DNA of 64,000 bases. Source: Candidatus Eiseniibacteriota bacterium (GTDB lineage: Bacteria > Eisenbacteria > RBG-16-71-46). The stretch is from contig JBGPFC010000005.1 of assembly GCA_041483195.1 (NCBI GenBank), positions 1-64,000 of the forward strand, given 5' to 3'. Shown in pieces: positions 1 through 16,173 of the stretch (its first letter is position 1; the number at the start of each line of letters is the position of its first letter). Under the pieces are notes generated by a model. That model ran no database searches and was not told the DNA's origin. It saw nothing but the letters and a program-made list of their open reading frames with translations. The position numbers and the translations under genes were made by a program.

Positions 1-82
1 CAACATCCGCGGCAACAGCTACCGGCTCAAGGACAAGCTCAAGTCGGGCATCGTCCAGGCGGCCACCGAGGACGTCAGTTGA
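1..82 (+). CDS. istB: IS21-family helper ATPase IstB, C-terminal fragment (truncated by the window edge)
   Basis: Frame from nt 2 reads NIRGNSYRLKDKLKSGIVQAATEDVS* (TGA 80-82). I-x-G-x-S-Y-R is the typical IstB C-terminal motif, and an IS21-type end follows immediately. Confidence 0.8.
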   Translation, partial: NIRGNSYRLKDKLKSGIVQAATEDVS

Positions 83-141
83 TCACCCGGGTGGGGAGTT
101 TTCGATGACCGCAGATGGGGAGATTTGGGTGACCGTTGACA
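1..141 (+). mobile_element. Right end of an IS21-family insertion sequence
   Basis: Ends in ...GTTGACA (141); the reverse complement begins TGTCAACGG. It carries two tandem imperfect repeats (reverse complement GGTCACCCAAATCTCCCCA / GGTCATCGAAAACTCCCCA), like IS21 multiple terminal repeats, directly after istB. Confidence 0.8.
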
Positions 142-881
142 AGAAAGGCCAGCAGCTCACGGCGGGCCGCGTGCGTCAGTACCTCGAACCGTTCATGGGT
201 CACTTGCAGCTCGACCGCGTGAGCGGGGAGGATGTGCGGGCGTACCGGCTGTGGGTCGAGCGCAGCACGAAGCTCTCGACCGGGTCCGTGTGGCATCTGC
301 TGGCGGACTGCCGGTGCCTGTTCAACTGGTGCGAGGAGGCCGGGCTCGTGTCGCGGAGTCCGTTTCCGCGTCGGGTGATGCCGAAGCTTCAGGAACGGCT
401 CCCGGATCGGCTGACGGACGAAGAGGCCGAGCAAGTGCGGTGTCTGCCCGAGCCGCACGGGTTCGTGTGTCGGCTGGCGTTGGGCACGGGCCTTCGGTGG
501 GGCGAGTTGTGCCGGGCGCAGGCTTCGGAGGTGGAGCGCGAGTTCCTGCTCGTGCATCACACGAAGTCGCGCAAGGTGCGACGAGTGCCACTGACCGGCG
601 AGCTGCTCGCGGAAGTCCGGCTGCACGTGGGCAGGCTCGTTCCGTTCGCGCGATTGTCGCCGGGTTCGTTCGCGAACTCGGTACGGCGCATGAGCGGCAT
701 CGAGCAGTTTCACGTCCACCAGATGCGGCACACGTTCGCTTGCCAGTGGTTGGAGCGGGGTGGCAATCTCGCCGCCCTTCAGCAAATCCTGGGTCACGCT
801 TCGATCGAGACTACGCAGCGATACGCGCGGCTGAGCGATGAAGTGGTGATGCGGGAGGCGCGGAGGCTGGCGCAAACTTGA
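142..881 (+). pseudogene. Tyrosine recombinase/integrase, N-terminally interrupted by IS21 (ORF 105..881 starts inside the IS end)
   Basis: Catalytic motifs GLRWGEL (R), HQMRH (HxxR) and LGHASIETTQRY (H, Y) are present. The first 12 codons of the ORF lie within the IS terminal repeats. Confidence 0.8.
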
Positions 882-893
882 GGAGGGATAAGC

Positions 894-1235
894 ATGGCGA
901 TCGGTGTTGACTTCAAGAAGCGGAGCGACAGGGGTGGATCGGACATCTGGGCTCCGGTGGCAATGTGTGACGTTTGCGGCTCGGAGATCTCCGATGGCCG
1001 CGCAGGTGTGTACCTGTACGACCAGAAACTAGGAGCATTTCAAGTCCCGACGATCGCTTGTAAGGGCAGTTGCCATGAGAAGGCCGAAAGAGAGATGAAG
1101 GCCAAGGGCGCTTCGGTCGGCTGGATGGAGATGTATGCCTTTGTAGGGATGCTCAAAGGTAACGTGATGCTGAAGAGCACACCTGCTGGCAAGAAGCTCG
1201 CTGACGAAGCGGAGAGCGGGGAGTTGGAGTCCTAA
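894..1235 (+). CDS. Small hypothetical protein with CxxC...CxxxC (possible Zn-binding)
   Basis: GGAGGG RBS upstream, 113 aa, CDVC and CKGSC motifs, visibly lower GC than the flanks. Confidence 0.6.
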   Translation: MAIGVDFKKRSDRGGSDIWAPVAMCDVCGSEISDGRAGVYLYDQKLGAFQVPTIACKGSCHEKAEREMKAKGASVGWMEMYAFVGMLKGNVMLKSTPAGKKLADEAESGELES

Positions 1236-1247
1236 CAACCGCTGCTC

Positions 1248-1270
1248 ACCGTAGCAGAGACCGTAGCAGA
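1248..1270. repeat. Tandem 11-bp direct repeat ACCGTAGCAGA x2 (possible integrase arm-type sites)
   Basis: Copies at 1248-1258 and 1260-1270, about 30 nt upstream of the tRNA. Confidence 0.55.
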
Positions 1271-1299
1271 ACGGGTAGAGCAGGGACGCATCTCGTTGT

Positions 1300-1376
1300 G
1301 GCCCCGTAGCTCAGACGGATAGAGCAGCGGTTTCCTAAACCGCGTGCCACTGGTTCGACTCCAGTCGGGGCCACCA
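1300..1376 (+). tRNA. tRNA-Arg(CCT)
   Basis: Acceptor stem GGCCCCG/CGGGGCC, D arm GCTC/GAGC, anticodon stem GCGGT/ACCGC with CCT at 1334-1336, T loop TTCGACT, encoded CCA. Confidence 0.95.
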
Positions 1377-1639: not shown

Positions 1640-3373
1640 ATGCAGACCCGAATGAGCGCGATGCCGCCTCAGGAAGCCCCGCTCCCCACCACGGTCGTGT
1701 CGGCGTTGGTCCAGATGTTCTCCCGCCTGGGAGTGAAAGAGGCGTTCGGCGTCTCGGGTGGCGCGATGGCGGCGCTGTGGGACGCGCTGTCATCCAGCTC
1801 GCTCGGCGTCTATCACTTCCGTCACGAGAACGGGGCCGCGTTCGCGGCCATCGAGGCGTGCTTCGCGAGCGGGCGACCGACCGTCCTGTTCACGACCACG
1901 GGACACGGACTCACCAACGCGCTGACCGGCATCGTGGCGGCTCGCGACGAACGCGCTCGCGTCATCGTCGTCTCCGCGTATACGTCCGCGTCATCGCGGG
2001 GCCGGTTTGCCATCCAGGAGACGTCCCGGAGCACGCTGCCCCCTTCGCTCTACGAAGCCGGGCGTCCGTTTCACTTCGCCTCGATCGTCGACGATCCCAC
2101 GCAGCTCGCCGCAATCGAGCGAGGGCTGGCGGAGGGCCTCGCTCGCCGCAGCGGATTCGTCGCTCACCTCGCGATGGACACCGCGGTGCAGCGGGCGCCC
2201 GCTCCCGAACCGCGGATACTCTCGCTGGCGATTCCGGTGACTGCACAGCCACCGCCGCACGCCGACATCGCAGCCTGCGTCGATGCGCTGAGCGATGGCC
2301 CGTTTGCAATCTGGGTCGGGTTCGGCGCGCGCGATGCCGCCGCCGAGGTCGCGACGCTCGCGCGTCGCATGCGGGCGCCGGTGATGTGCTCACCGCGTGG
2401 CAAGGGGATTTTCCCCGAGAACGACCCGCTGTTCGTCGGTGTCACCGGCCTGGCCGGACACGCTTCGGTGATGCGATATTTGGAGGAGTTCAAGCCCCGA
2501 CGCCTGCTGGTGCTCGGCACGCGGATGGGGGAGCCGACCTCGTTCTGGGACCGCCGCTTCATCGCGCCCGAGGGGTTCGTTCACGTCGACGTGGATCCCG
2601 ACGTGCCGGGCGTCGCGTTCGGCACCGCGCCCACGCTCGCCATCGTGGCCGACGTGGGAGCGACACTCCGGGCGGTGCTCGCCAATCTGCGACCTTCGAT
2701 CGGCGGCGCCACGCCGGAGTTGCCGCGTCCGCGGATCGACCGGGTCGATCGACGCACCGAGGGCCTGGTGCGCCCCGAGGCGCTGATGGACGCGCTCCAG
2801 GATCGGGTCGTCGATCGCGGCAACGCGACGGTGCTGTCGGAGTCCGGCAACTCATTCCTGTGGACGACGCACCGATTGCGGTTCTCGGAGCCGCGCCGAT
2901 ACCGGGTCAGCACCGGTGTGGGGGCCATGGGTCACGCCGCGGCCGGCGTCGTCGGCGCGGCGCTGGCCACCGGGCGAAAGGCGGTCGCGGTGGTCGGCGA
3001 CGGCGCCCTGCTCATGACCAACGAGATCAACAGCGCCGTGAAATTCGACGCGCCCGCGGTGTGGATCGTCCTCAACGATGGCCGCTACGGCATGTGTGCC
3101 CAGGGCATGGACGCCCTCGGGCTCACGGCCGACGCGGAGATCCCGCAGGTCGACTTCGCAGCGTTCGCTCGCGCGCAGGGAGCCCGCGCGGCGCGCGTCG
3201 ACCACGAGGCGCAGCTCGACGGAGCGCTGGCGGAGGCCATGGCGGCCGACGGGCCCTTCGTCGTCGACGTTCGCATCGACCCTCGGAGCAAGGCGCCGGC
3301 GTCGCAGCGCAACGCCGCGCTCGCCGCCAAACTCTCCCTGAATCGCGAGCGGATCTTCCCCGCCGGTCACTGA
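1640..3373 (+). CDS. ScyA-like thiamine-diphosphate-dependent acyloin synthase (acetolactate synthase family)
   Basis: FGVSGGAMAALW, FRHENGAAFAA (catalytic Glu), RGRFAIQETS and the ThDP motif GDGALLM...LNDG resemble cyanobacterial ScyA as recalled. The start could be TTG 1607, ATG 1640 or ATG 1652. Confidence 0.85.
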   Translation: MQTRMSAMPPQEAPLPTTVVSALVQMFSRLGVKEAFGVSGGAMAALWDALSSSSLGVYHFRHENGAAFAAIEACFASGRPTVLFTTTGHGLTNALTGIVAARDERARVIVVSAYTSASSRGRFAIQETSRSTLPPSLYEAGRPFHFASIVDDPTQLAAIERGLAEGLARRSGFVAHLAMDTAVQRAPAPEPRILSLAIPVTAQPPPHADIAACVDALSDGPFAIWVGFGARDAAAEVATLARRMRAPVMCSPRGKGIFPENDPLFVGVTGLAGHASVMRYLEEFKPRRLLVLGTRMGEPTSFWDRRFIAPEGFVHVDVDPDVPGVAFGTAPTLAIVADVGATLRAVLANLRPSIGGATPELPRPRIDRVDRRTEGLVRPEALMDALQDRVVDRGNATVLSESGNSFLWTTHRLRFSEPRRYRVSTGVGAMGHAAAGVVGAALATGRKAVAVVGDGALLMTNEINSAVKFDAPAVWIVLNDGRYGMCAQGMDALGLTADAEIPQVDFAAFARAQGARAARVDHEAQLDGALAEAMAADGPFVVDVRIDPRSKAPASQRNAALAAKLSLNRERIFPAGH

Positions 3374-5536
3374 ATGGAAGACAACACATTCACCACCACG
3401 GTCTACGCCCGGACCCCGGCGGCGCGCGCGTTCGCGTACTTGCGGCGTCTGCAAAACCTCGACGAGTGGACCCTCGGCAGCCGCATGCTCACGCGGATCG
3501 ACGACGACACGTTCATGGGCACGGCGTCTGGCTACCAGGCTGCGCTGTGCTACCACGTGCGCGCGCTCGAGCATCCGCGCATTGCCGCGATCGAGTGGCA
3601 GTGCGGCTACCGCTATCGCGAGTACTTCAAGCAGTATCCGGTATTCGTGTTTCCCTCGCGCTACGCGGGCCCTCACGACGACGAAGACGGCAGCTACATC
3701 CACTGGGTCAGCGTGGTCGATCCCGCACGCCGAACCGCGATGATCATGCAGGGAATCGCGGCCGTGCATCACTATGAAGCGCGAGGACTCAAGGCCGCGC
3801 TCGAACGCGCCGAGGGAATCGCGCGGCCCGCCGAGGGGCGAGTCTCCGTGCTCTCGGACACGATGTGGGTCGATGCGCCGCTCGCGATGGCTCGCGAGGT
3901 GCTCGCCGATCGGGAGGCCCTCGCCAGATGGGCGCCGCTCTTTCGACCCGTCGACGCCGCAGCGGGATCATTCCTCGACGAGTACGCGCGGCGCGTCCAG
4001 GTCGAGTTCGCGGCGTGCGATCTCGGCGACTACGCGCTGGTCGAGCAGGACTACGCGTACCCCGATCTCGGCGAGGTGCAGCGCTGCCCGATCATCCTGG
4101 TGCCGTGCGCTCGAGCCTTCGGCCCGGAGGCGCCCGGATTCCTGCTCCACCGGGTCGCATTCGTACGCAACGACGGCTCGCAGACGCACGGTCGCACGAC
4201 GGCCTCGGATCTGAGCGCGGAGAGCATGGCGATCAAGCGCATGCTCGAGGCGCGCGCGGGAAACCTGACCAGTTTCGCTCGCGGGATGAGCTATCGGCCC
4301 GGTCCCGCGATCACCGATGACGAGATCATGGCGTCACCACCGGACATCTTCACACCCGAGTTCGCCGCGGATCCATACCCACACTATCGCCGAATGCGCG
4401 ACGAATATCCGCTGTACTTCCACGCGCCAACCCGAGCGTGGATCCTCAGCCGCTACGACGACGTTCGCATGGCGCTGACCAACCCGACGTTCACCACCAA
4501 GAGCTACGCCGCGCAGACCGAGCCCCTGCTCGGCAAGACGATCATCCAGCTCGACGGGCGCGAGCATGCGCTGCAGCGCGGGTTGCTGACGCCGTCGTTT
4601 CGCGAGGGGAGCATTCGAGAGCGCTTCTCCGATCTGATCGTCGGCGCCATCGATGAGCTGACCGGCGTGGTCGCCTCCCGCGGCGAGGCGGACCTGATCG
4701 GGGATGTTGTCGTGCACCTTCCTGTCCGCATCATGGCGGGGTTGCTCGGCTTGCCCGCGCAAGACCGCGACCGGTTCCGGACGTGGTACACGGCCCTGAT
4801 TCAGGGCGCACTCAATCTCACCGGTGACCCGGCGGTGGCGGTGGCGGCCACCACCGCGCGGGACGAGCTCGACGCCTATCTGCGGCCGCTCATCGCCGCC
4901 CGGCGCGAGAGCCCGGGCACCGATTTGATCTCCACCCTGGCGACGACCATCGTTGAGGGCGATCGGCTGACCGACGAACAGATCATCCGCTTCGCGATGC
5001 TGATGGTGTTCGCGGGGGGCGAGACCACCGAGAAGGGGCTCGCGACCGTCCTGCGCAACCTGCTCGCACATCCCGACGCACTGGCCGCGGTGCGGCAGGA
5101 CATGTCGCTGCTGCCGCGAGCGATCGCCGAGTCGTTCCGCTACACCGCCCCCACTCACATGGTGCCGCGTCAGACCCGCGAGGAGGTGGAGGTATCGGGT
5201 GGGCTGCTGCCCGCGGGGGCCGAGGTCATGTGCTTCCTGGGCTCGGCCAACCGCGATGAGCGCCGCTTCGCCGATCCCGATTGCTTCGACCTCGACCGGC
5301 CCGAGTCCGACCCCAAGCGCGCGTTCACGGGCGCGGCCGACCACCTCGCGTTCGGCGGCGGCCGGCACTTCTGCCTCGGGGCCGTGCTCTCCCGTTTCGA
5401 GATCGAGGTCGCGTTGACTCGCATCTTCGATGCACTTCCCGACCTGCGACTCAGAGGCGACACGCCTCCGCCCGATGTCGGGCTGTTCCTGCGCGGCCCG
5501 GCGACGCTTCCCGTTCGATTCTCGAGGCGGGCGTAG
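3374..5536 (+). CDS. Fusion: ScyC-like cyclase/decarboxylase (N-terminal ~310 aa) + cytochrome P450 (C-terminal ~400 aa)
   Basis: N-terminal MEDNTFTT, NLDEWTLGSRM, GTASGY, IEWQCG, IHWVSVVDP and MIMQGI match ScyC-type motifs as recalled. The C-terminal half has the I-helix FAGGETT, ExxR (ESFR) and heme motif FGGGRHFCLG. One uninterrupted frame. Confidence 0.85.
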   Translation: MEDNTFTTTVYARTPAARAFAYLRRLQNLDEWTLGSRMLTRIDDDTFMGTASGYQAALCYHVRALEHPRIAAIEWQCGYRYREYFKQYPVFVFPSRYAGPHDDEDGSYIHWVSVVDPARRTAMIMQGIAAVHHYEARGLKAALERAEGIARPAEGRVSVLSDTMWVDAPLAMAREVLADREALARWAPLFRPVDAAAGSFLDEYARRVQVEFAACDLGDYALVEQDYAYPDLGEVQRCPIILVPCARAFGPEAPGFLLHRVAFVRNDGSQTHGRTTASDLSAESMAIKRMLEARAGNLTSFARGMSYRPGPAITDDEIMASPPDIFTPEFAADPYPHYRRMRDEYPLYFHAPTRAWILSRYDDVRMALTNPTFTTKSYAAQTEPLLGKTIIQLDGREHALQRGLLTPSFREGSIRERFSDLIVGAIDELTGVVASRGEADLIGDVVVHLPVRIMAGLLGLPAQDRDRFRTWYTALIQGALNLTGDPAVAVAATTARDELDAYLRPLIAARRESPGTDLISTLATTIVEGDRLTDEQIIRFAMLMVFAGGETTEKGLATVLRNLLAHPDALAAVRQDMSLLPRAIAESFRYTAPTHMVPRQTREEVEVSGGLLPAGAEVMCFLGSANRDERRFADPDCFDLDRPESDPKRAFTGAADHLAFGGGRHFCLGAVLSRFEIEVALTRIFDALPDLRLRGDTPPPDVGLFLRGPATLPVRFSRRA

Positions 5537-6105
5537 TCCGAACGCGCCATCGCCGCGATACACCCCGGTTCGCGCAGCAGGCCGTACGCCCGAGAACCCC
5601 GACGTGCTCCAGCCCGATGGAGCGGTGTGGGCTCGTATCGCGACATCGATCCAAGCAGGCCGCTTCCCTCCCCCGGCCGATGATGAGGCGGGCATGCCAG
5701 TGCATTGGAGCAACGAGCCTACGGAGAACGCTTCATGGCCCGGATCGAGCCGGGCTGGGTTCGAAATGCGGGCACCCCGACGACGATTTTCACGCTCATA
5801 CTCGCAGGGCCGTGGTGCCTCATCCCGTTCATCGGCCTCCGGTTCCTCCTCGTCGATCTCAGCATCCTCCCGCCGATCTGGTGGTGGCTGGTGCGAGGCC
5901 GGACGGACGAGCCGCTGCGAGGGGCGATGGCGAGTTTGGTCATCGGCCCACGCGTTCACCTCGACGAGTCCATGCTTCTGGTCTGCACCGCGAGAGGGCC
6001 GGGGCGCGGCGACGGTGACCAATGGAGGCGGTTGCGCTTACGTCTGCTCCAAGGCGGGTTCACTTGCGTTCTCGCGCGCGGAGCTCCGGAGTTCCGCGGA
6101 TTGTC

Positions 6106-7359
6106 CTACGAGGCGACCGCGCCCTTCGCTTGCCTCAGCAGGTGCGCGAAGATCGCGAGGTAGTCTCGCGCCTCGCGGGGGTGGAGGAAGTTGTCGCGCA
6201 CGTGCTCGCGACCCTCGCGCCCGAGCCGGCGGCGCAGCGCGGAGTCCCGCAGCAGCCGGACGATCTGCAGCGCGCACCCTTCGACCGAGCGCACGAGCAT
6301 TCCGGTGCGCTCGTGGATCACTTGGAGCGGAATCCCGCCGACCGCGCTGGCCACCACCGCGCGCCGCTTCCACAGCGCCTCCGACACGGTGAGCGCGAAC
6401 CCCTCGCGCAGCGACTTCTGAATCACCACGGCGGATCGCCGCTGGAGCGCGTTGATGATGCGGTGGGAATCGGGTGGCAGCGCGAGCAGCGTGACGTCCT
6501 TTCGGCCCCCGACTCGCTCTCGCGTCTCGGCCAGCACCACCGCGCCCTCGGGGTCGTCGTCCGCGGTGCCGCCCGCGAGCACCAGATGCGCCTTTTCGCG
6601 ACGCCGCGCCAGCACGAACGCCTCCACGACGCCCACCGGATCCTTCAAGCGATCGAAACGCGAGACCTGCGTCACCGTCGGCGTGTCGCGCGGCAGGTCG
6701 AACGGCTCGAGGAGTCGGTCCACCTCGTCGTCGGGCAGCTCGAGATTCTTCTCGGAGAGCGGATCGATCGAGGGAGGAGCGAGAAACGCCGGCGTCGCGA
6801 GCGGCGGAACGAACGTCACGTGCGAGAACACGGCGGCGTGAAAATGGTTCACGCGATTCGCCACGAAATCAAGCACGTCCGGATTGGCCCGCGAGAGGTC
6901 GATGTGGCAGCGCCACAGCCAGCGCTGACCGGCCTTTCTCCGCAGCTCGGCCAGCGCGGCCGGCTGGGGATCGTGAATCAGCACCAGGTCGCCATCGAGC
7001 GCCAGCTCCGCGGCCGCGCGGCGGTTCATCTCGTGGAAGTGGTCCATGTCGTCGGCGGTGAGGGACCCCGGGCCGCCGTGCAGGGCGTTGTGAATCGTCT
7101 TTGTGATCTCGTAGAAGCGGGCGTCGCCGGGCATGACCTCCCAGGTGGTGGGAATGCCGAGCTCGTTCAACAGCGGCACCAGCCGGTGAAGGATCTCCGC
7201 CACGCCGCCGCCGGTCGACGTGGAGTTGACCATGGCGATGCGATGACCGTGGAGCGACCGCGCGAGCGACTCGAGCGCGCGCATCGGGCCGTCGCCAATT
7301 ACCGCGCGATAGCCGTCCACCAGCGACGCGCCGTCCGAGCGGGTCTGGACCCGCGTCAT
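6106..7359 (-). CDS. treT: GT4 glycosyltransferase, trehalose synthase TreT-like
   Basis: VNSTSTGGGVAEIL, IHDPQP, WRCHID, QVSRFDRLKDP and QKSLREGFALTVSEALWK motifs. Confidence 0.85.
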   Translation of the reverse strand: MTRVQTRSDGASLVDGYRAVIGDGPMRALESLARSLHGHRIAMVNSTSTGGGVAEILHRLVPLLNELGIPTTWEVMPGDARFYEITKTIHNALHGGPGSLTADDMDHFHEMNRRAAAELALDGDLVLIHDPQPAALAELRRKAGQRWLWRCHIDLSRANPDVLDFVANRVNHFHAAVFSHVTFVPPLATPAFLAPPSIDPLSEKNLELPDDEVDRLLEPFDLPRDTPTVTQVSRFDRLKDPVGVVEAFVLARRREKAHLVLAGGTADDDPEGAVVLAETRERVGGRKDVTLLALPPDSHRIINALQRRSAVVIQKSLREGFALTVSEALWKRRAVVASAVGGIPLQVIHERTGMLVRSVEGCALQIVRLLRDSALRRRLGREGREHVRDNFLHPREARDYLAIFAHLLRQAKGAVAS

Positions 7360-8111
7360 CGGGTGTCACCCGAACCACGGCGCCGGCGCACGAGCCGCAC
7401 CACGGCCTGCCGCGCGGCCTCGCGACGCGCGTCCTCCGGGGCTCTCGTGGCCTCGGCGAGATGTCTTCCGATCTTGCTCCGCCGCCACCGCGTCTGAACG
7501 CGCGCGCGCACTTTGTCGATCGGCAGACCCGACCCCGCGGCCTCCTCGAGCCAGGTCGCGAGGCGGTCATCGGACGTGCCGCGGAGCCACGCGAGCAGGG
7601 GGGCGTGGCCGCCTCCAGTCCATGGCTCTTCGACCAGGTGGAAGAACCACACACACGCGTCCGCCGCCAGCAGCGCGTCCACGAGTTCCTGGCCGTCGTG
7701 AGCCCGCATGCCGATGGAAAATCTCAACGAGATCGCGGAGAGGAACGGGAACGCGCTGCCCTCTGGCGCGTCGCGCTCGACGCGCCGTTTCGTGGGGATC
7801 GCATCCAGCACCTCAAGCAGCTCGGCCCTCAGCGATTCGGCGGTGGCGTGCCTGGCCTGGACCACGAACGAAAGGCGCTCCGCGGTCTCGTCGTCCTGCG
7901 CGACCCCGCCGATCCACGCGCTGAAGTCGTCGCGCGGCTGCTCGTCGGCACCCGGATGCCGCAGCCGGTACTGAACCGCGTGGTGGAAGATCACCTCGGC
8001 CGGGGCCGCCGCGATGCCGTGGCGGAGCCCATCGAGATCACGCGCCGGCTCTCCCCACGGCTGGATCAGATGTGCCACTCCGCTCAGCTCGAACCCGGGG
8101 CCACTCGCCAT
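7356..8111 (-). CDS. DUF5752-like protein (TreT-associated)
   Basis: Two internal repeats (IFHH..DFSAWI / FFHL..LAW). ATG at 8111 overlaps the upstream TAA (TAATG). Typical neighbour of treT. Confidence 0.7.
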   Translation of the reverse strand: MASGPGFELSGVAHLIQPWGEPARDLDGLRHGIAAAPAEVIFHHAVQYRLRHPGADEQPRDDFSAWIGGVAQDDETAERLSFVVQARHATAESLRAELLEVLDAIPTKRRVERDAPEGSAFPFLSAISLRFSIGMRAHDGQELVDALLAADACVWFFHLVEEPWTGGGHAPLLAWLRGTSDDRLATWLEEAAGSGLPIDKVRARVQTRWRRSKIGRHLAEATRAPEDARREAARQAVVRLVRRRRGSGDTR

Positions 8112-8815
8112 TATTCCGGCCTCTTCGGCCCCACTTCGTCGAGCGAACGCAGGTACTCGACCAGGAAATCCCGCGCGAGGTCGCGGCATCCGAGGCCGAA
8201 CGCCAGCGCCAGCCCGAGGCCGGCCGTCGCGACGGCCACGATGCCGATCGCCATGACGAACTGCGCGGCCAGGCCGAGCTGCTCGAGCGCGAGCAGCGCC
8301 GCGAACCCGGTAAGGACCGCCGAGACGATCCGCCCCTGGAGCTTCGCCGTGCGGATGTCGGCGGATTCGAGGAAGCGCTCGGTGATGCCTCCGATCAGCA
8401 ACGCGATGAACACGCCGACCGCGAACAGCACGGCGGAGGTCACGATCCGCGGCACCACCTCGCTCAGCCGGTCCGCCACCGATGCGCCGAGGCTGAACCC
8501 GAGCGTATCGAGCGCCAGCATCGCGGCGCCCGCCATCACGACCCAGTACACCGCCCAGCCGGCGATGCCGGCCGGCTCGTGCCGGAGCGGCGCATGCGGA
8601 CCCATGAGACGCCGCATGCCTTCATCGAACTTGAGCGCGCGCAGGACGCCGCGCACGACGCGGGAGAGGAGCGCGGCGACCGCCCAGCCCAGCAGCATCA
8701 CCACCAGGGCCGCGGCCGTGTTGATGGCACCCTGGCCGGCCGCGCCTCCCAGGTCTTCGAGACGCGTGAGAAGACTCGACCACGGCTCCGTCTGCAGTAT
8801 CACGAGCGTCGACAT
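8111..8815 (-). CDS. Membrane protein, mechanosensitive-channel TM-helix/CmpX-like
   Basis: Several hydrophobic helices and a C-terminal GLALAFGLGCRDLARD motif. Confidence 0.7.
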   Translation of the reverse strand: MSTLVILQTEPWSSLLTRLEDLGGAAGQGAINTAAALVVMLLGWAVAALLSRVVRGVLRALKFDEGMRRLMGPHAPLRHEPAGIAGWAVYWVVMAGAAMLALDTLGFSLGASVADRLSEVVPRIVTSAVLFAVGVFIALLIGGITERFLESADIRTAKLQGRIVSAVLTGFAALLALEQLGLAAQFVMAIGIVAVATAGLGLALAFGLGCRDLARDFLVEYLRSLDEVGPKRPE

Positions 8816-8840
8816 GCGATCACCTCCACGTTGTGCGGGC

Positions 8841-10448
8841 TCAACCGGGCGTGCGCCCGGGTTCGGAGGCCGATGCGGGCGGGGCCTCCCTGGCGGGTGT
8901 TCTGAGGTTCAGGCCCACGATGGTGTCGAGCACGTCGAGCGTCCAATCGAAGATGTTCCGGCGCAGCACCGTCTCGCGCAGCGCCGCCATGCGCTCGCGG
9001 CGCCCGTCGGCCGGCTCGGAGAGCGCGTCGTGGTACGCGTCCGCCAGCGCCTCGCGGTCGAAGGGGGAGACGAGCCAGGCCCGCTCGAGTTCCCGCGCCG
9101 CGCCCGTGAAGGGCGACAACACGAGCGCGCCCTCGAGATCGGGCGAGGCGGCGAGGTATTCCTTGGCCACCAGGTTCATGCCGTCGTGGAGCGACGTCAC
9201 CGTGCACAGGTCCGCCATGCGGTAGTAGGGGACAAGTTCGCGGAAATCGAGATTGCTCTCGATCAGGTGCACCGTGGGACCCGCCGCGCGCGGGTAGCGG
9301 CGGTTGATGGTCTCGGCCCAGCGGCGCGTCCGAAGCTTCACGTTGCGGTACTCTCGCAGCTCGATGCGGGACGGCACGCCGATCTGGATGAAGACGAGTC
9401 GCCCCCGCCACTCGGGGTGCTTCTCGAGCAGCCGATCGAGCGCCTCGAACCGCTCGGGAATTCCCTTCGTGTAGTCGAGCCGGTCCACCCCGAGGACGAT
9501 CTTGCAGCCCTCGAGCCCCAGTCGCTCGCGGATATCGGCCTCGGCCCGCCGCGTCTCCGCGGTCTCCGCGAGGGCCGCGATCTGCTCGGCGTCCACGCTG
9601 ATCGCGACCGGGTGCACCCAGGTGCGCCGGCCCGCGCGGTCCACCGCCAGCCGCTCGAAATCCACGCGCGCCTCGAGCGATTCCGCGACGCTGTCGAGGA
9701 AGTTCATCGCGTGGCGGCGGATGTGGAATCCCACGAAGTCGTTCGCCAGCATTCCGGCGAGGACCTCTTCCTTCCAGGGCAAGACGCGGAACGCCTCGGG
9801 ATTGGGCCACGGAATGTGCCAGAACATCGCCACCTGAAGATCGGGACGTTTCTCTTTGATGAATCGCGCCGCCAGCGCGAGGTGGTAGTCCTGAATGAAG
9901 ACCAGCGCCGGCAGGTCGCCGACTTCCTCGAGCACTGCCTCGGCGAAACGCAGGTTGACCTTCTGGTATGACCTCCAGTCCGCGATGCGGAACAGCGGCC
10001 GCACGTACACGACGTGGCACAACGGCCACAGCGCGCTGTTGGCGAACCCCGAGTAGTAGTGAGCGTGATCCGCGTGCGTGAGCCAGAGCCGCCGCAGGGT
10101 GTAGCGAGGGCGATCGGGCGGACACGCGATCCGATCGTGGGCGTCCACCACCTCGCGGTCGGCATCGCCGCCGCCGTGGGCGACCCACACGCCGCCCAGC
10201 GCCTGCATGACCGCATCGAGCGCGACGGTCAGCCCGCCCGCGTTGCGGATCGCGCGGAGCTCGCCGTCCACGCGCTGATGCGAGTAGGGCTCCCGATTGG
10301 AGACCACGACCAGCTTGCGGTTCGGGAGATGGGCCTGAGCCCAGGCGACGAGGTCGGCCTGCGTCGTACGCGGAGGACCCTCGCTTCGCTGTTGCGTTCG
10401 AATCGCGGCGCGGCTGAGTGCCGAGCGAGCCCTCTCGGCAAGGTCCAC
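8841..10448 (-). CDS. otsA: Trehalose-6-phosphate synthase (GT20)
   Basis: VVSNREPY, AGGL, YYSGFANSALWPLCH, QDYHL, FWHIPWP, GVDRLDYTKGI and DGMNLVAKEY motifs. Confidence 0.95.
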   Translation of the reverse strand: MDLAERARSALSRAAIRTQQRSEGPPRTTQADLVAWAQAHLPNRKLVVVSNREPYSHQRVDGELRAIRNAGGLTVALDAVMQALGGVWVAHGGGDADREVVDAHDRIACPPDRPRYTLRRLWLTHADHAHYYSGFANSALWPLCHVVYVRPLFRIADWRSYQKVNLRFAEAVLEEVGDLPALVFIQDYHLALAARFIKEKRPDLQVAMFWHIPWPNPEAFRVLPWKEEVLAGMLANDFVGFHIRRHAMNFLDSVAESLEARVDFERLAVDRAGRRTWVHPVAISVDAEQIAALAETAETRRAEADIRERLGLEGCKIVLGVDRLDYTKGIPERFEALDRLLEKHPEWRGRLVFIQIGVPSRIELREYRNVKLRTRRWAETINRRYPRAAGPTVHLIESNLDFRELVPYYRMADLCTVTSLHDGMNLVAKEYLAASPDLEGALVLSPFTGAARELERAWLVSPFDREALADAYHDALSEPADGRRERMAALRETVLRRNIFDWTLDVLDTIVGLNLRTPAREAPPASASEPGRTPG

Positions 10449-10593
10449 GGCGACCTCCTTCGGAGTGCCCGCCTCCGCGGCGCCGGGGGAGGCGTACGGG
10501 CAGCGAATCGGGCGCTCGTTCGAGCCTCGTTGACGTCATCCGGAGGCTACGAGACGATGAGCGGGCGGTCAACCTTGGCGGGGCGCCCCCAAC

Positions 10594-11400
10594 ATGCGGC
10601 CTCCAGATGCTCTCGAAGGCGTTGCGGAAGAGCTGTGGCGCATGGCGTCGCTCGCCCGCCACCGGCTGCTGATGCTCGATTACGACGGGACGCTGGCCCC
10701 CTTCACCGTCGTCCGCGACGAGGCGCGGCCCGCGCAGCGCACGCTGGAATTATTGCGCCGCATCGGCACGGGGTCCCGCACGATCGTCGCGATCGTCTCG
10801 GGGCGTCCGCTGGTCGAGCTCGAGCGAATGATCGGAGCGCTGCCGGCTATCTTCGTCGGCGAGCACGGCTGGGAACGGCGCGCGCCCGACGGGAGCCTCG
10901 TGCTGCGCCCGCTGGACCCATCGGTCGCGACCATGATCGAGGACGCCGAGCGCATGGCGCGCGCCTCGGGCTTGAGCGAATGGCTCGAGCGCAAGCGCTC
11001 GGCGATCGTCCTCCACACCCGGTCGCTCCCCCCCGAACAGGCTGTCGCGTTGAACGAACGCTGCGTCGCCGCGTGGCGGAGCCTCACCCTCGGAGGCCGC
11101 GTGACGTTGGATCGGATCGATGGCGGGGTGGAGCTGCGCGCGAGCGGATGGGGCAAGGGAAGTGTCGTAGGTTCGCTGCTCTCGCAGTCACCGCCCGAAA
11201 CGCTCTGCGTGTTCGTCGGCGACGACGTGGCGGACGAGGACGCCTTCGCCGTCGTCCGCGAGCGCGGGTTCGGCGTCCGGGTGGGCGATCGCGAGTTGCC
11301 GTCGCTCGCAATGGGCCGCCTGCCATCGAGCGAGGCGGTGACGGTGTTTCTCGAGAGGTGGCTCGAGGTGGTCGAGGACGCGGCAGGCACGGCGCCCTGA
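10594..11400 (+). CDS. otsB: Trehalose-6-phosphate phosphatase (HAD)
   Basis: LDYDGTL, IVSGR, GEHG and GDDVADEDAF motifs; divergent from otsA. Confidence 0.9.
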   Translation: MRPPDALEGVAEELWRMASLARHRLLMLDYDGTLAPFTVVRDEARPAQRTLELLRRIGTGSRTIVAIVSGRPLVELERMIGALPAIFVGEHGWERRAPDGSLVLRPLDPSVATMIEDAERMARASGLSEWLERKRSAIVLHTRSLPPEQAVALNERCVAAWRSLTLGGRVTLDRIDGGVELRASGWGKGSVVGSLLSQSPPETLCVFVGDDVADEDAFAVVRERGFGVRVGDRELPSLAMGRLPSSEAVTVFLERWLEVVEDAAGTAP

Positions 11401-11452
11401 GCCCGCCGGACCGCTGCCGGATCGCGGCGGTCTCGGTCGCGCTGGGGGGCGC

Positions 11453-11896
11453 CTACCCGTTCGGATTCGCGCTCGCGGGACGTCGAGGCTCAACCGCGCG
11501 CTTGCGCCCGATCAACCCATCGACGCTCCAATCGCCGCCGCCCCGCGCCGCCAGGTACAGGAAGATGAAGCAGAGCAGCACGGCCGGCGCGCCCATATTC
11601 ACGATGGGCCACGCTCCCTTCGGCGCGTGGAACTGCCAGTACGCGACTGCCATCTCGCCGGACAGAATGAAGGCGACCGGCCGGGTGAAGAGGCCGAGCA
11701 TGATGGCGACGCCGCCGATGACCTCGAGCACGCCGCCGATTCCCGCCTCCGTCATCAGGGGCGCGTGCGAGCCCAGGTGGCCGGGCATGCCCCCGTACCA
11801 GCCGAACAGCTTCATCGCGCCCGGCTGGAAGATCAGCAGCCCCGCGACGATTCGAAGCAGGAAGAGCGTGACCTGTTCGCCGCGATGCGAGTTCAT
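11453..11896 (-). CDS. DoxX-family membrane protein
   Basis: LLRIVAGL..KLFGW, LGLFTRPVAFILSGEMAVAYW and GGGDWSVD motifs. Confidence 0.85.
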   Translation of the reverse strand: MNSHRGEQVTLFLLRIVAGLLIFQPGAMKLFGWYGGMPGHLGSHAPLMTEAGIGGVLEVIGGVAIMLGLFTRPVAFILSGEMAVAYWQFHAPKGAWPIVNMGAPAVLLCFIFLYLAARGGGDWSVDGLIGRKRAVEPRRPASANPNG

Positions 11897-12414
11897 CGAG
11901 TGCCCCCTGAGCGGGTCGCCAGAAATTCGGCGAGACGGTCCAGCATTTCGATCCAGCCCTGCTGCGTCGCTTCGCGCTCATCGATCGAATCGGGAATGGA
12001 ATGCATCAGGGTGAGCTTCGTCCCGCCTTCATTCTCCGCAAACGTCACGGTCACCAGCGTCTCGGAGGGGTGGCCCTCGCTGAACCCGTAAAGGGCCGGG
12101 GGGACCGGGTTGCCGTTCGCGTCGGCGAAGGCGTCGGTGTAGACGATCCGCTCCGGCGCGACGATTTCGCGAAAGATGCCGATGCCCCAGATGTCGCGCC
12201 CCTCGGGCAGCCGCATGCAGTAGTGGAATACGCCGCCCACGCGGAGATCCACGGTGCAGAACGGCGTCGTGCAGCCCTTCGGCGCCCACCAGCGCATCAG
12301 GTGCTCAGGCCTGGTCCAGGCCTCGAACACCCGCTGGCGCGGAGCATCGATGATGCGAGTGGTGACGATCCCAGGGTCCATGGTCTTCGCGAGGGGGCGA
12401 TTGCCTTCGTTCAT
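11893..12414 (-). CDS. SRPBCC/AHSA1-like domain protein
   Basis: TRIIDAPRQRVFEAWT, DLRVGG, PERIVYT and GW motifs. AAGGAG RBS before ATG 12414. Confidence 0.85.
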   Translation of the reverse strand: MNEGNRPLAKTMDPGIVTTRIIDAPRQRVFEAWTRPEHLMRWWAPKGCTTPFCTVDLRVGGVFHYCMRLPEGRDIWGIGIFREIVAPERIVYTDAFADANGNPVPPALYGFSEGHPSETLVTVTFAENEGGTKLTLMHSIPDSIDEREATQQGWIEMLDRLAEFLATRSGGTR

Positions 12415-12484
12415 CTCGCTCTCCTTTGGGTTGCGGCCCGCGCACGAGGTCGTGCGGTCGGCCACGTGATTAGTGCGCCTCGGG

Positions 12485-12955
12485 CTACTCCGCGAGTTGC
12501 GCGGCGAGCAGCCGCGCCAGGCGGTCGAATCCCGAGCCCCAGCCCGAGCCGTGGTGATCGCGGGTCTGGCGGTCGGGGAAGAACTCGTGCGTGAGCTTCA
12601 ATCGCGTGCCGCCCGGGATGGCGATGAATTCGAGCGTGACGCGCGCCTCGGGCGCGCCGGCGAGCGGCCCATCCAGCCATCGCGTGTGCCAGACGATGCG
12701 GGCCGGCCGCCGGATCTTGGCATAGCGCGCCGTGCAGTGGGTGACGCCGCCGGTGGCCACGTCGCTCATGGCGAGGCTCCAGCCGCCGCCGACGCGCGCG
12801 TCGACCGTCATCGTGTCGATCGTGTAGGCGTCCGCCGACCAGATGCTTCGAAGCGCGGCCGCATCGAGAAACGCGCCGAAGACGCGTTCGCGCTCCGCCT
12901 CGAAGTCGCGCGAGAGTTCCAGCGTGGTGTTCGGGTCGGGACCGGCCGCCATCAT
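12485..12955 (-). CDS. SRPBCC/AHSA1-like domain protein
   Basis: DARVGG, GTRLKLTHE and HGSGWGSGFDRL motifs. Confidence 0.8.
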   Translation of the reverse strand: MMAAGPDPNTTLELSRDFEAERERVFGAFLDAAALRSIWSADAYTIDTMTVDARVGGGWSLAMSDVATGGVTHCTARYAKIRRPARIVWHTRWLDGPLAGAPEARVTLEFIAIPGGTRLKLTHEFFPDRQTRDHHGSGWGSGFDRLARLLAAQLAE

Positions 12956-12993
12956 TTCTCACCTCCCATGGTGCTGCTCCCGGTGTCGAAGAA

Positions 12994-13344
12994 CTACTTC
13001 TTCCGGCCGCGTGCCTTGCGTCCTCCCCGCAGTCCGCGGAGGTAGTCGTCCAATCGATCCAGCCGCTGTTCCCAGAGGCTGCGGTACTGCGCGAGCCACA
13101 CGGACGCCTCCTGCAGAGGCACCGCCTCCAGCCGGCAGGGCCGCCATTGCGCCTCGCGGCCGCGTGCGATCAGGCCCGCGCGCTCCAGCACCTTGAGGTG
13201 CTTGGAGACGGCGGGCAGGCTCATGTCGAACGGCTCGGCGAGTTCCGTGACCGCGCGCTCGCCGGACGCGAGCCGGGCGAGGATCGCCCGCCGGGTGGGA
13301 TCGGCGAGTGCTGCGAATGTGGCGTTCAGGCGCTCTGGCGACAT
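12994..13344 (-). CDS. ArsR/SmtB-family transcriptional regulator
   Basis: FAALADPTRRAILARL and SLPAVSKHLKVLERAGLI wHTH motifs. Start placed at MSPERL. Confidence 0.9.
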   Translation of the reverse strand: MSPERLNATFAALADPTRRAILARLASGERAVTELAEPFDMSLPAVSKHLKVLERAGLIARGREAQWRPCRLEAVPLQEASVWLAQYRSLWEQRLDRLDDYLRGLRGGRKARGRKK

Positions 13345-13360
13345 GGGGCGAAGGACCTCC

Positions 13361-13388
13361 GTGTAATCAACCACTCGGTTAAATACAC
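13361..13388. promoter_or_regulatory. Palindromic operator upstream of the ArsR operon
   Basis: GTGTAATCAACC-ACTC-GGTTAAATACAC, a 10/12 inverted repeat just upstream of the arsR-family start. Confidence 0.7.
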
Positions 13389-13479
13389 CAGAGGACCACC
13401 TCGGGTCAAGGGTTACTCGGGATGGGGGAGCAGACGGGCCGAGGATGGATCACGCTCTCGGGCGCCGCCGTCCCGTCGC

Positions 13480-16173
13480 TCAGACCCCGATCCAGAAGGT
13501 GGCTTTCACCGCGAACACGTTCTCGGGCGCGTGGTCGAGCAGCCCGCGATAGTCGCGCGAGAAGTCGAACCCGCCGAGCGGCTGGATATCGGTGCGGTGC
13601 TGCTGCCACACCAGGAATAGCGTCGAGCCGGGGCGATACTCCCAGCGCAACACGGCGTTCCCGAGCAGCGACCGGAAGTTGAAGTCGGGGTCGTCGAACG
13701 CGAAGGTCGCGCCGTTGCCGGGATCGACGGTGTACACGCCGGAGGGATCGCGCGTGATGCTGCCGCGATGCTTGCCGTACACGTCGAACTGGAATTGCTG
13801 CGGCGCGCGCAGCTCCTTGAACTGCGAGTAGTGCCCGGTCACGACCAGCGGCTGCACGTAGATCTGCAGGCTGAGCCGCGGGGTGAGCGTCCAGTCGCAG
13901 CGCGTGTCGAGCGAGAGGATCCGCTGGTCGAGCGTGGCGAACACGTCCCGCTCTCCGTAGGTGGCGGTCGCGTCGGTGTCGGGCACCGATTGCAGATATT
14001 GCCCGAGCGCGTGCGAGGCCGAGTACGACGGCTCGAAGCGCACGCGCAGGGTGGGCGAGGGGCGCAGCGAGACCGACACCGACGGGAAGTCGCCGACGCC
14101 CCCGAATTCGTTCCACGAGTGGGAGAAGTACGGGCTCACGGTCCACGAACGGCGCGAGTCCGAGGTCAGGTTCACGAACCACGACCCGATCTCGGGCGTG
14201 CGCGCCTGCGGGCCGCCGCGCGTGATGCGGTCGTCCATGACGCTCCGATTCAGCGTGATGCGGCTGTCGAAGCTCGAGAAGTCGGGGAACGTGCCGCTCG
14301 CGTCGAGCGCGTAGGAGTCGAACACGCGGTCTCCCCCGAAGTTCCACATCTGATTCTCGAACGGATAGATCGTGTAGTTGCGCAGGAATTTCCCGGGACG
14401 GTTCTCCTGATAGAGCACGATGCTCGAGAATCCCCGGTAGTCGGCGCGCTGGTCGTAGCCGAGGTCGTTGGTCTCGTACCCCGGGCTGCGGCTCACGTAG
14501 GCGAGCGAGGTGAGCCAGTGTGTTCCCGAGGTCTTCGAGATCGAGCCATCGAGCCCGTAGCCCTGGAGCTTCGTGCGATGGGGATCGTACGTGAAGTAGT
14601 CGGCATGATCGGGGCGTTGCAGGTAGCGCGAGCTGGCGCGTTGCGCCGTGGCGATCGCCTGGCTGCTGCCGTCGATGCTTGATCCCGTGAGCGCGGCGTC
14701 CACCGCCCAGCGGCGCTGGCTCCATGCGCTCCCGAAGTCGACTCCGCCGACGTAGGCGTTGGACCTCAACAATCCCAGGAGCGCGGGATCGTCCAGCCGG
14801 CGATTCACGGCGGTGAGCAGCGCGCCGACCGAGGTGTTGCCGGAGCGCAGCTCGCGGCGCGCGCGACCGGTGAAGTAGTGGGTGAGCGGCTCGACCTCGG
14901 CGCTGCGATGGACGCCGAGGGTGTCCACGTAGTCGGCGAGCTCCCGGGTCGTCACCGCGTCGAGCGCTCCGATCGCCCATCCGCCGGCAGTGCGCCCGGT
15001 GAGCTTCGCGGCGCCGCCGATGCTGGTCGCGGGCGGGCTGTCGACGAAACGGAAGTTCGGGCCTCCGAGCACCCGCTGCGGCGCGCGGCCGATGCGCCGC
15101 GAGTTGAAGATCGTGGGCACCCCGATGTTGTTGAACGCGCGAGAGCGGCCGAAGCCGAACAGGTCCGAGCCCTCCACGAAGAACGGGCGGTGCTCGGGAA
15201 ACAGCGTCTCGAACGCCGTGAGGTTCACCTCGGCCGGATCCTGCTCCACCTGCCCGAAGTCGGGATTGACCGTGAGATCGAGCGTGAGGTCGCTGGTGAC
15301 GCCGTACTTGAGATCCCCGCCGGTCGCGCCGAAGTAGTCGCTGTGCGACCGGAACGGATCGTTGCGCGCGACGTCGAGTCGTTCGTTGCGGCCCGACACG
15401 TACGGCATGATCTCGAGACGCTGGGGGCGCTCGAGGCGTCCCAACCCGACGAGTTCGCCGTAGCGACTCACGCCGCCCTGTTCCTTCTTCGGGGTGAAGG
15501 CGAACACCGACCGTTCGCCCCTGCGAAAGATGGTGCGTGCGAGCTGCAGCCCCCAGGCCGCTTCGCCCTGCGTGTTGTATCGCAGCTGCGCGAGCGGGAT
15601 GCGCAGCTCGGCGCTCCAGCCGAGCGAGTCCACGCGGGTGCCGGCCTCCCACACCGCATCCCAGGTGTCGTCCTCGCCGCCGTCGGTGCCGATCGCGCCG
15701 TCGAGGATCGCGCCCGCGGGGTTCACGCGGAAGCGCTTCGCCGTGAGGTGGTCGTGGTAGGAGTCGAGGTACACGTCGAACGCGTCGGTCTCGACCGGAT
15801 CGTCGCGCCGCGAGAGCCGCGCCTTGATCTTCGATGGCTCACGGTCGAACAGCCGCGCGCCGATGTAGAGCGCGTCGTCCCCGATCAGAATCCGCACCTC
15901 GGTGCGCTCGGAGACCGGCTTGCCCTCCTCCGGGTCGTTCTGCGTGAACTCGGTGACCGGCGTCGCCTCCGACCACGCCGCCTCATCGAGCACGCCGTCG
16001 ATGTGGACCGTTCCGCTGAGCCGCGAGGCGATCGCCCGCGGGGGAGGAGCGACGTGACGCGCCGCCGTGGTGTCGGGCGGCTGGGCGAGCGCGGCGTTCG
16101 CGCCCGCGAGCACCATCCACGCGATGAGCGGCGTCGCGCGCACGAGCCCGGGGGTCGAAGGCGGCGGCGTCAT
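13480..16173 (-). CDS. Secreted/outer-membrane protein, CBM9-like sugar-binding domain + DUF5916-like barrel
   Basis: Signal peptide, IDGVLDEAAW, WSAELRIPL, LTVNPDFGQVE, ETLFPEHRPFFVEG and a C-terminal VKATFW. Confidence 0.75.
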   Translation of the reverse strand: MTPPPSTPGLVRATPLIAWMVLAGANAALAQPPDTTAARHVAPPPRAIASRLSGTVHIDGVLDEAAWSEATPVTEFTQNDPEEGKPVSERTEVRILIGDDALYIGARLFDREPSKIKARLSRRDDPVETDAFDVYLDSYHDHLTAKRFRVNPAGAILDGAIGTDGGEDDTWDAVWEAGTRVDSLGWSAELRIPLAQLRYNTQGEAAWGLQLARTIFRRGERSVFAFTPKKEQGGVSRYGELVGLGRLERPQRLEIMPYVSGRNERLDVARNDPFRSHSDYFGATGGDLKYGVTSDLTLDLTVNPDFGQVEQDPAEVNLTAFETLFPEHRPFFVEGSDLFGFGRSRAFNNIGVPTIFNSRRIGRAPQRVLGGPNFRFVDSPPATSIGGAAKLTGRTAGGWAIGALDAVTTRELADYVDTLGVHRSAEVEPLTHYFTGRARRELRSGNTSVGALLTAVNRRLDDPALLGLLRSNAYVGGVDFGSAWSQRRWAVDAALTGSSIDGSSQAIATAQRASSRYLQRPDHADYFTYDPHRTKLQGYGLDGSISKTSGTHWLTSLAYVSRSPGYETNDLGYDQRADYRGFSSIVLYQENRPGKFLRNYTIYPFENQMWNFGGDRVFDSYALDASGTFPDFSSFDSRITLNRSVMDDRITRGGPQARTPEIGSWFVNLTSDSRRSWTVSPYFSHSWNEFGGVGDFPSVSVSLRPSPTLRVRFEPSYSASHALGQYLQSVPDTDATATYGERDVFATLDQRILSLDTRCDWTLTPRLSLQIYVQPLVVTGHYSQFKELRAPQQFQFDVYGKHRGSITRDPSGVYTVDPGNGATFAFDDPDFNFRSLLGNAVLRWEYRPGSTLFLVWQQHRTDIQPLGGFDFSRDYRGLLDHAPENVFAVKATFWIGV

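Follow-up and report, generated by a model that had tools for sequence, protein, structure and literature searches.

In the scytonemin pathway of cyanobacteria, ScyA reportedly joins indole-3-pyruvate to p-hydroxyphenylpyruvate, and ScyC turns the product, by cyclisation and decarboxylation, into a cyclopent[b]indolone; these steps are attributed to Balskus and Walsh, in whose mechanism ScyC is said to require indole C2 as the nucleophile. The genes lie together as scyABCDEF, with trp/aro/tyr supply genes. Here we examine a 64,000-nt stretch of DNA (the window), the first 64 kb of a contig from a Candidatus Eiseniibacteriota bacterium, in which a scyA-like gene for a thiamine diphosphate (ThDP) enzyme is followed directly by a single gene encoding a ScyC domain fused to a cytochrome P450. 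We consider it reasonably probable that the two genes form an operon for a small aromatic alkaloid, based on the first committed steps of scytonemin synthesis, and to judge from the encoded families the product is likely an oxidised cyclopent[b]indolone. The first two steps have known enzymology; what is new is the coupling to a P450, the lack of scyB and scyDEF, and the hosts.

PMC4870267 states that in vitro roles have been established for ScyA, ScyB and ScyC, and published papers describe scytonemin as exclusive to cyanobacteria. A 2022 study (PMC9796282) reports that BLAST with ScyC recovered 71 cyanobacterial sequences and one from Methylocaldum marinum, with none else below E = 1, and that a few Myxococcales and Acidobacteria sequences sit on long branches of the ScyA tree; PMC6939163 deals with cyanobacterial variants. 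NCBI maintains a 'ScyA-related' model, which shows that its curators are aware of ScyA paralogues. Our literature search, which did not extend to most subscription journals, found no published account of a ScyC-P450 protein or of a scyA-scyC-P450 cassette. The first-pass annotation of this DNA, which was made from the sequence alone, had proposed a compact route that appeared undescribed. As regards published descriptions this stands, but the uniqueness was overstated, because the locus is not a one-off and belongs to a widespread, conserved cassette family.

The cassette resembles the scytonemin cluster of Calothrix (locus L073) in having a homologous ThDP enzyme and a full-length ScyC in the same order and on the same strand. 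It differs from that cluster in that no scyB lies between the two genes, no scyD/E/F is found in the genome, a P450 is fused to ScyC, dedicated aromatic supply genes are lacking, and the host is a non-phototrophic, Eisenbacteria-like bacterium.

A scyA-like gene and a ScyC-P450 fusion gene

The genome (4.17 Mb in 93 contigs, 96.8% complete) and the window both have a GC content of ~69%. Gene calling relied on length and on the GC of codon positions, and the proteins were then scanned against Pfam and NCBIfam. The cassette comprises the following features.

1640-3373, + strand: scyA-like gene for a ThDP enzyme of 577 aa, matching Pfam TPP_enzyme_N/M/C and the NCBIfam ScyA model
3374-5536, + strand: ScyC-P450 fusion gene, 720 aa, matching the NCBIfam ScyC model and Pfam p450
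3374-4300, + strand: ScyC domain of the fusion, residues 1-309, a putative cyclase/decarboxylase (NF035924)
4274-4330, + strand: inter-domain linker, residues 301-319, with predicted local distance difference test (pLDDT) values <50 in the full-length model
4343-5521, + strand: P450 domain of the fusion, residues 324-716, CYP134/CypX-like (TIGR04538 and 3nc3 matches)

The TGA of the scyA-like gene ends at 3373 and the ATG of the fusion gene opens at 3374, leaving zero spacer (CAC TGA ATG GAA) and bearing out the direct adjacency on the + strand that had been read in the first pass. The upstream open reading frame (ORF) can be drawn from 1607 or 1640 to 3373; the ATG at 1640 was chosen as the start that is kept in a relative, locus L012. 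The GC fraction at third codon positions is 0.86 in the scyA-like gene and 0.85 in the fusion gene, a pattern typical of real genes in this host.

The product of 1640-3373 is, by its family matches, a putative acyloin synthase coupling two arylpyruvates. It scores 767.6 bits (E 8e-231) against NCBIfam TPP_ScyA (NF035923), an equivalog model whose cut-off is 1020, and 717.3 bits against the ScyA-related subfamily model NF035927, whose cut-off is 1000, and so falls below both. The best acetolactate synthase (ALS) model gives 186.4 bits, and the ScyA-model score is four times that of any non-ScyA ThDP model. Identity is 50-56% to cyanobacterial ScyA and 74-86% to Eisenbacteria-type relatives (tblastn against the loci described below), and the translation contains the GDG...ND cofactor motif and the HENG glutamate. 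The window enzyme falls among ScyA proteins in the ScyA tree. Whether it was a ScyA or an ordinary ALS had been left for checking; by score and by tree it belongs to the ScyA clade, a placement to be read with its position under the NCBI equivalog cut-off. The closest solved ThDP structures are BbmA (199 bits) and CsmA.

The ScyC model NF035924 spans residues 2-309 of the fusion protein and profile positions 1-312 of 312 (E 1e-119); its scores, 399.3 bits when the protein was scanned and 402.3 when the genome was, lie at the cut-off of 400. By BLASTP the N-terminal 315 residues are identical at 154 of 313 positions (49%, E 8e-114) to P0205, a protein of Calothrix sp. FI2-JRJ7 that NCBI names ScyC. 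The proposed ScyC identity of the N-terminal domain is thus matched end to end. All 19 of the 19 columns that are invariant across 13 ScyC homologues (29-49% identity) are retained in the window's domain, including H132, E135, K140, E144, R260, E283, K288, R289 and E292. An AlphaFold2 model of the domain, made with 13 homologues, has a pLDDT of 91.7 and a predicted TM-score (pTM) of 0.90 and consists of two helix-grip (SRPBCC) lobes.

The top Foldseek matches of this model in the PDB are StfQ and BexL (E 6e-11 to 9e-10), di-domain aromatase/cyclases of type II polyketide synthases that likewise carry two helix-grip lobes in one chain. They are, however, only 12-15% identical to it, with a global TM-score of ~0.3, and no polyketide synthase genes lie near the cassette. 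Further matches are DynU16 and CqsB2 of Streptomyces exfoliatus (E 7e-9, TM 0.57 on the target). CqsB2 was also the sole match of the ScyC profile among PDB sequences (E 9e-4), so that no ScyC structure appears to have been deposited. CqsB2 links the domain to the bacterial carbazole pathway of Streptomyces, in which a ThDP coupling of indole-3-pyruvate is followed by a helix-grip cyclase, and which requires a ketoacyl synthase III (KAS-III) enzyme and an acyl carrier protein (ACP). Unlike the window's ScyC domain, CqsB2 has a single domain (~220 aa; 17% identical), and neither a KAS-III enzyme nor an ACP was seen among the neighbours of the cassette.

The C-terminal part of the 720-aa protein matches Pfam p450 at 111.7 bits. 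Its best family match is TIGR04538, the cyclodipeptide-synthase-associated P450s (283.8 bits, under the cut-off of 500), and its best solved relative is CypX of B. subtilis (CYP134A1, pulcherriminic acid synthase; 3nc3, 255.5 bits). The heme-thiolate cysteine is Cys667 (5372-5374). Across 22 fused homologues (55-89% identical to the window protein, with a mean column identity of 71%) the heme loop FGxGxHFCxGA with C667, the I-helix GETT (E550-T551) and the ExxR motif (E586/R589) are invariant. Unlike the TIGR04538 P450s, this domain is fused to a cyclase and is encoded in a genome in which no cyclodipeptide synthase was found (the B. subtilis control was positive). Its substrate is presumably not a diketopiperazine, given the fusion to a cyclase. 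The genome encodes one other P450, 32% identical to that of the fusion. The linker varies in length and sequence among the 22 homologues, and the model of the full-length fusion (pLDDT 80.6, pTM 0.53) has two well-folded domains joined flexibly, with no reliable packing between them.

The remaining scytonemin genes were sought throughout the genome with a library of models that, in the control locus L073 of Calothrix, gave ScyA at 1080.4 bits, ScyB at 664.7, ScyC at 610.6, the ScyD/E family at 359 and 327, and ScyF at 579. The best genome match to ScyB has 94.5 bits against a cut-off of 600 and falls to ordinary amino-acid dehydrogenases; the best match to ScyD/E has 29.8 bits against a cut-off of 80; and the matches to the ScyF model are NHL repeats in proteins of 868-2255 aa on other contigs. 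Near the cassette there are no dedicated trp/aro/tyr supply genes, the neighbours being trehalose-synthesis genes, regulators and unrelated genes. As far as a 96.8% complete assembly allows this to be judged, the cassette is minimal across the entire genome, in which neither ScyB nor ScyD/E was found, as the first-pass annotation had supposed of the module. Its view of the genome as non-cyanobacterial also agrees with our results: no type II reaction-centre protein was found in the genome (the Synechococcus control was positive), and the nearest relatives of the cassette are in metagenome-assembled genomes (MAGs) of Eisenbacteria.

Distribution and layouts of the cassette

A word-indexed search with the whole fusion protein, in which the 8000 candidates sharing most words were scored, returned 169 proteins at E <= 0.001. 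Among the 120 matches listed, most are full-length fused proteins of ~700-790 aa with 54-90% identity, and more than 100 fused clusters are found in metagenomes. Where these proteins have a name, it is 'cytochrome P450' or 'pulcherriminic acid synthase', and their MAG labels include Candidatus Eisenbacteria and Ideonella. An exhaustive HMMER search of 1.84 billion cluster representatives with the ScyC domain by itself gave 84 matches at E <= 0.001, of which 39 reached E <= 1e-30; by these matches ScyC is a small, sharply bounded family. Within the phylum of the window's host, ScyC was matched in 9 of 206 genomes, always in open frames of 500-842 aa, a count that takes in the window genome and one genome flagged as unpublished (G073). 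The match was found in 5 of the 121 high-quality genomes of the phylum and in none of the three other genomes of the same genus. Such patchy occurrence, in both phylum and genus, marks the cassette as an accessory trait.

Scanning one genome per prokaryotic species with a five-row ScyC alignment gave 308 ScyC loci, and onto the best 80 of these we mapped the three units of the window by tblastn. An orthologous P450 (54-92% identical) directly follows scyC in 29 of the 80; 50 have no such P450 in the available DNA, six of these having <1.2 kb after scyC; and one locus, L025, breaks off inside scyC and stands outside both groups. The scyA-like gene is directly upstream of scyC in 27 of the 29 P450-linked loci, and the other two begin at a contig edge. 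It is likewise upstream in 49 of the 50 loci without the P450 (L057 has none within its available DNA). In 46 of these 49 a gap of 1.0-1.9 kb separates scyA from scyC, which in L073 contains ScyB, and in L067, L068 and L079 scyA is directly upstream. Loci without the P450 are cyanobacterial in 45 of 50 cases, the exceptions being two Acetobacteraceae MAGs and contigs labelled Tatlockia, Gracilibacteria and Synechococcus. The P450-linked loci carry the labels Candidatus Eisenbacteria/Eiseniibacteriota, Acidobacteriota (Bryobacteraceae, Acidobacteriaceae, Terriglobia) and Pseudomonadota (Hyphomicrobiales, 'Ideonella', unclassified).

When the 29 P450-linked loci were read from the ScyC start, 12 had a fused frame of 702-770 aa, one had a frame open to the contig end, and 14 had a separate P450 gene right after a ScyC of 320-337 aa (in L026, for example, with a 4-nt overlap); the frame of L018 is interrupted and that of L027 unreadable. 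The split clusters (L026-L070, in Acidobacteriaceae, Bryobacteraceae, Terriglobia and alphaproteobacterial MAGs) have the same three catalytic units as the window in the same order, with a P450 54-62% identical to the window's, but unlike the window they keep ScyC and the P450 as separate genes. Because the two are fused in one lineage and adjacent in others, we infer that scyC and the P450 act together.

All trees were quick IQ-TREE runs (LG+G4) with support from the Shimodaira-Hasegawa-like approximate likelihood ratio test (SH-aLRT). In a ScyC tree of 78 rows (the window and 77 loci; L025, L027 and L034 were omitted as partial or interrupted), a single branch splits the 28 P450-linked rows from the 50 others (SH-aLRT 100), and the fused proteins form one clade of 15 (SH-aLRT 100). 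The ScyA tree, with 73 rows, has the same split, 24 P450-linked rows versus 49 (SH-aLRT 99), and is congruent with the ScyC tree. The sequences thus make a solid case for one P450-linked lineage in which ScyA and ScyC co-evolved. We also rooted the ScyC tree with 10 distant standalone homologues as outgroups (87 rows; L018 was dropped for its long branch). Here the 27 P450-linked rows, those of the split clusters included, formed one clade (SH-aLRT 100) that lay inside cyanobacterial lineages (supports 81-95). A direction of transfer read from this rooted quick tree was nevertheless not upheld, since an approximately unbiased (AU) test on the outgroup tree did not reject keeping the 50 rows without the P450 together (p 0.474).

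Clustering of flanking ORFs found that fused-type loci have no common gene family beyond the cassette. At least eight split-type loci have three extra conserved genes downstream, which are found at L044:10205-12285 and at the same positions in L029, L030, L034, L035, L037, L045, L046, L049 and L051.

SRPBCC (Polyketide_cyc2) protein, 155 aa
family-less protein, 221 aa
cytochrome c protein, 309 aa

The presence of these genes suggests that the split-type pathway is longer than the window's. The window genome has no counterpart of the 155-aa SRPBCC protein or the 221-aa protein, and has a weak 30% match to the cytochrome c protein.

Some single loci depart from these layouts. In one Acidobacteria MAG (L026:1994-3244) the gene directly upstream of scyA encodes a class I/II aminotransferase, which may replace ScyB as supplier of arylpyruvate. 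Two Acetobacteraceae MAGs (L067 and L068, ~6168-15462) carry scyA, scyC (470 bits), trpD, trpE, a class II 3-deoxy-D-arabino-heptulosonate 7-phosphate (DAHP) synthase gene and tyrA, without scyB or the P450, and so present a third, scytonemin-like layout in Alphaproteobacteria. Three contigs are at odds with the labels of their MAGs, likely by mis-binning: the ScyC of L048 (labelled Tatlockia) has zero branch length to Chlorogloea, that of L058 (labelled Gracilibacteria) nests with Hydrococcus, and L027 (labelled Synechococcus, GC 0.50) has the heterotroph-type scyA-scyC-P450 layout. One Acidobacteriota MAG has two cassette copies, L018, with its P450 in two pieces, and L025, which ends at a contig edge; these could reflect assembly indels or a decaying duplicate.

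Proposed pathway and alternative readings

In the pathway that we propose from the enzyme families, the ScyA-like enzyme would couple a pair of arylpyruvates, of which indole-3-pyruvate and p-hydroxyphenylpyruvate are the most likely, to a beta-keto acid, which the ScyC domain would cyclise and decarboxylate to a cyclopent[b]indol-2-one. As the genome is without ScyB, the arylpyruvates would be provided by ordinary aminotransferases or dehydrogenases. The fusion and the gene linkage point to a third step, in which the tethered P450 would act on the ScyC product in the cytoplasm, oxidising it through hydroxylation, desaturation or C-C coupling; this oxidation would stand in for the role of ScyD/E/F in the cyanobacterial periplasm and would draw its electrons from an unlinked ferredoxin system. 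That the P450 acts on the ScyC product is argued mainly by the conserved fusion or adjacency of the two.

A number of observations weigh against this proposal. Both NCBI cut-offs are missed by the ThDP enzyme, so that its function may not be that of ScyA and its substrate choice may differ; the ScyC score sits at the threshold of its model; and ScyB is lacking. Neither a ferredoxin nor a reductase gene lies beside the P450, and CypX, the closest characterised P450, uses a diketopiperazine and not an indolone. The full-length model, lacking confident domain packing, leaves channelling between the two domains structurally unsupported. Because the three extra split-type genes are missing from the window genome, the end products of fused and split clusters probably differ. 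Finally, 8 of the 24 sequencing runs listed for this DNA contain at least half of the sampled words (two of the eight are possibly the source), and the runs containing this DNA are labelled sediment metagenome, a setting in which a UV sunscreen is not obviously needed; there is no RNA run among the 24.

One alternative is that the enzymes share the fold of ScyA and ScyC but use other substrates, the ThDP enzyme coupling, for example, two phenylpyruvates or an arylpyruvate and pyruvate, and the ScyC-like domain cyclising a non-scytonemin skeleton. Both ScyA-family scores lie under their cut-offs, the P450-linked enzymes form separate clades on long, well-supported branches, and the closest solved ThDP structure is BbmA. 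We nevertheless regard this as unlikely, if worth keeping in mind, given that 19 of 19 invariant ScyC columns are kept, that the ScyC mechanism mentioned above is said to need indole C2, and that the ScyA model outscores every other ThDP family fourfold. Another possibility is that true scytonemin or a scytonemin-type dimer is made, with the fused P450 performing an oxidative C-C dimerisation in place of periplasmic ScyE. The relatives in the CypX/TIGR04538 group do include oxidative coupling enzymes, such as CYP121, the other late scytonemin genes are all missing while the P450 is invariably attached, and ScyC and ScyA are ~50% identical to the cyanobacterial enzymes. Scytonemin, however, is an extracellular sheath pigment, and a dimer formed in the cytoplasm would require export, for which no conserved genes lie beside fused-type loci; together with the sediment label of the habitat this leaves dimer formation quite unlikely. 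We hold it similarly doubtful that the fused P450 is a cytoplasmic substitute for periplasmic ScyD/E/F that gives a scytonemin-type dimer or a nostodione-type oxidised monomer.

The patchiness of the cassette (9 of 206 phylum genomes, none of the three others in the genus) and its place beside a tRNA, where the adjoining sequence varies among relatives, would also suit a decaying relic of horizontal transfer without current function. Against such decay, both frames are open with host-typical codon usage, the catalytic motifs are invariant and conservation across the 22 homologues is 71%, and we find this explanation very improbable. It might also be objected that the ThDP enzyme is simply the cell's own ALS and its P450-fusion neighbour incidental, for it is the sole ALS/ScyA-family enzyme detected in a 96.8% complete genome that has ilvC. 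Yet it reaches only 185-186 bits on an ALS model whose cut-off of 538 was passed in 14 of 14 control genomes, no small-subunit gene is adjacent, the gene travels with scyC-P450 across phyla, and with ilvD missing and ilvC isolated the pathway looks incomplete, not rescued. Because of the 185 bits against 538 and the missing ilvD, this is the weakest of the rival explanations, and we give it almost no credence.

The state of branched-chain amino acid synthesis in this genome is an observation in its own right. The ilvC gene (C29:37329-38216) is isolated between the gene for a TPR protein and a gene of no known function, and neither ilvD nor any ALS besides the ScyA-like enzyme was found in the genome, although both were present in 14 of 14 control genomes. 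The pathway looks incomplete, barring genes in the unassembled 3%.

By these results ScyC has a well-populated sister lineage in uncultured heterotrophs, in which one specific P450 invariably accompanies it. Current annotation pipelines overlook the ScyC portion of the fusion protein. The cassette is compact and expressible, at two to three genes, and should yield a new indole-derived metabolite, and as a natural cyclase-P450 fusion it is useful for studying how two steps are coupled. It also supplies new non-cyanobacterial sequences for rooting the ScyA/ScyC trees that are used to date UV adaptation. Were the P450 such a substitute for ScyD/E/F, pigments of the scytonemin class would be made by non-phototrophic bacteria from sediment and soil in at least three phyla, and neither scytonemin-type molecules nor scy genes could any longer be taken as exclusively cyanobacterial markers. 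For dating the origin of the pathway, the heterotroph clade would then be the outgroup that has been missing, or else the donor or the recipient.

The tRNA and the flanking genes

The following features flank the cassette in the window.

3/105-881, + strand: tyrosine recombinase, truncated by the contig start
894-1235, + strand: ORF of 113 aa, no family
1300-1376, + strand: tRNA-Arg(CCT), called by ARAGORN (Rfam tRNA, 65.8 bits); context, outside the pathway
6106-10448, - strand: genes for a TreT-like glycosyltransferase, a DUF5752 protein, a small membrane protein and a GT20 trehalose-6-phosphate synthase
10594-11400, + strand: trehalose phosphatase

The tRNA-Arg(CCT) ends 263 nt upstream of the scyA ATG, and the cassette is thus tRNA-adjacent, as had been noted in the first pass. 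L011 and L012, the two closest loci, also have an identical tRNA-Arg(CCT) ahead of the cassette. Similarity among the window, L011 and L012 breaks off exactly at the tRNA 3' end and restarts ~25 nt before the scyA ATG, and in L011 the interval between tRNA and scyA holds an extra integrase-family gene on the opposite strand. The genes downstream of the cassette differ among the three loci. Taken together, these features give the 3' end of the tRNA the look of an integration hot spot. Ahead of the tRNA-Arg(CCT), both the window (3-1376) and L011 (707-4663) carry a tyrosine recombinase gene and a small ORF. We considered an integrated island at the tRNA and set it aside: neither a second copy of the 3' end of the tRNA nor a direct repeat at the flanks was found in the window, and its GC is steady.

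An Rfam scan around the operon found the tRNA alone, and consensus scans found no promoters and no terminators there. The + strand ORFs at 6022-12014 were rejected as genes; they are family-less and have the wrong codon pattern, the true genes sitting on the minus strand. Two ORFs, at 894-1235 (113 aa) and 5705-6163 (152 aa), use codons as genes do or nearly so and match neither Pfam nor NCBIfam; the latter runs into the 3' end of the TreT-like gene and is without an equivalent at related loci. Directly downstream of the cassette, at 6106-11400, lies a trehalose group made up of the TreT-like gene, the DUF5752 gene, the gene for the membrane protein, which has a mechanosensitive-channel helix, and genes for OtsA and OtsB. 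The closest relatives do not share this linkage, which is therefore probably coincidental.

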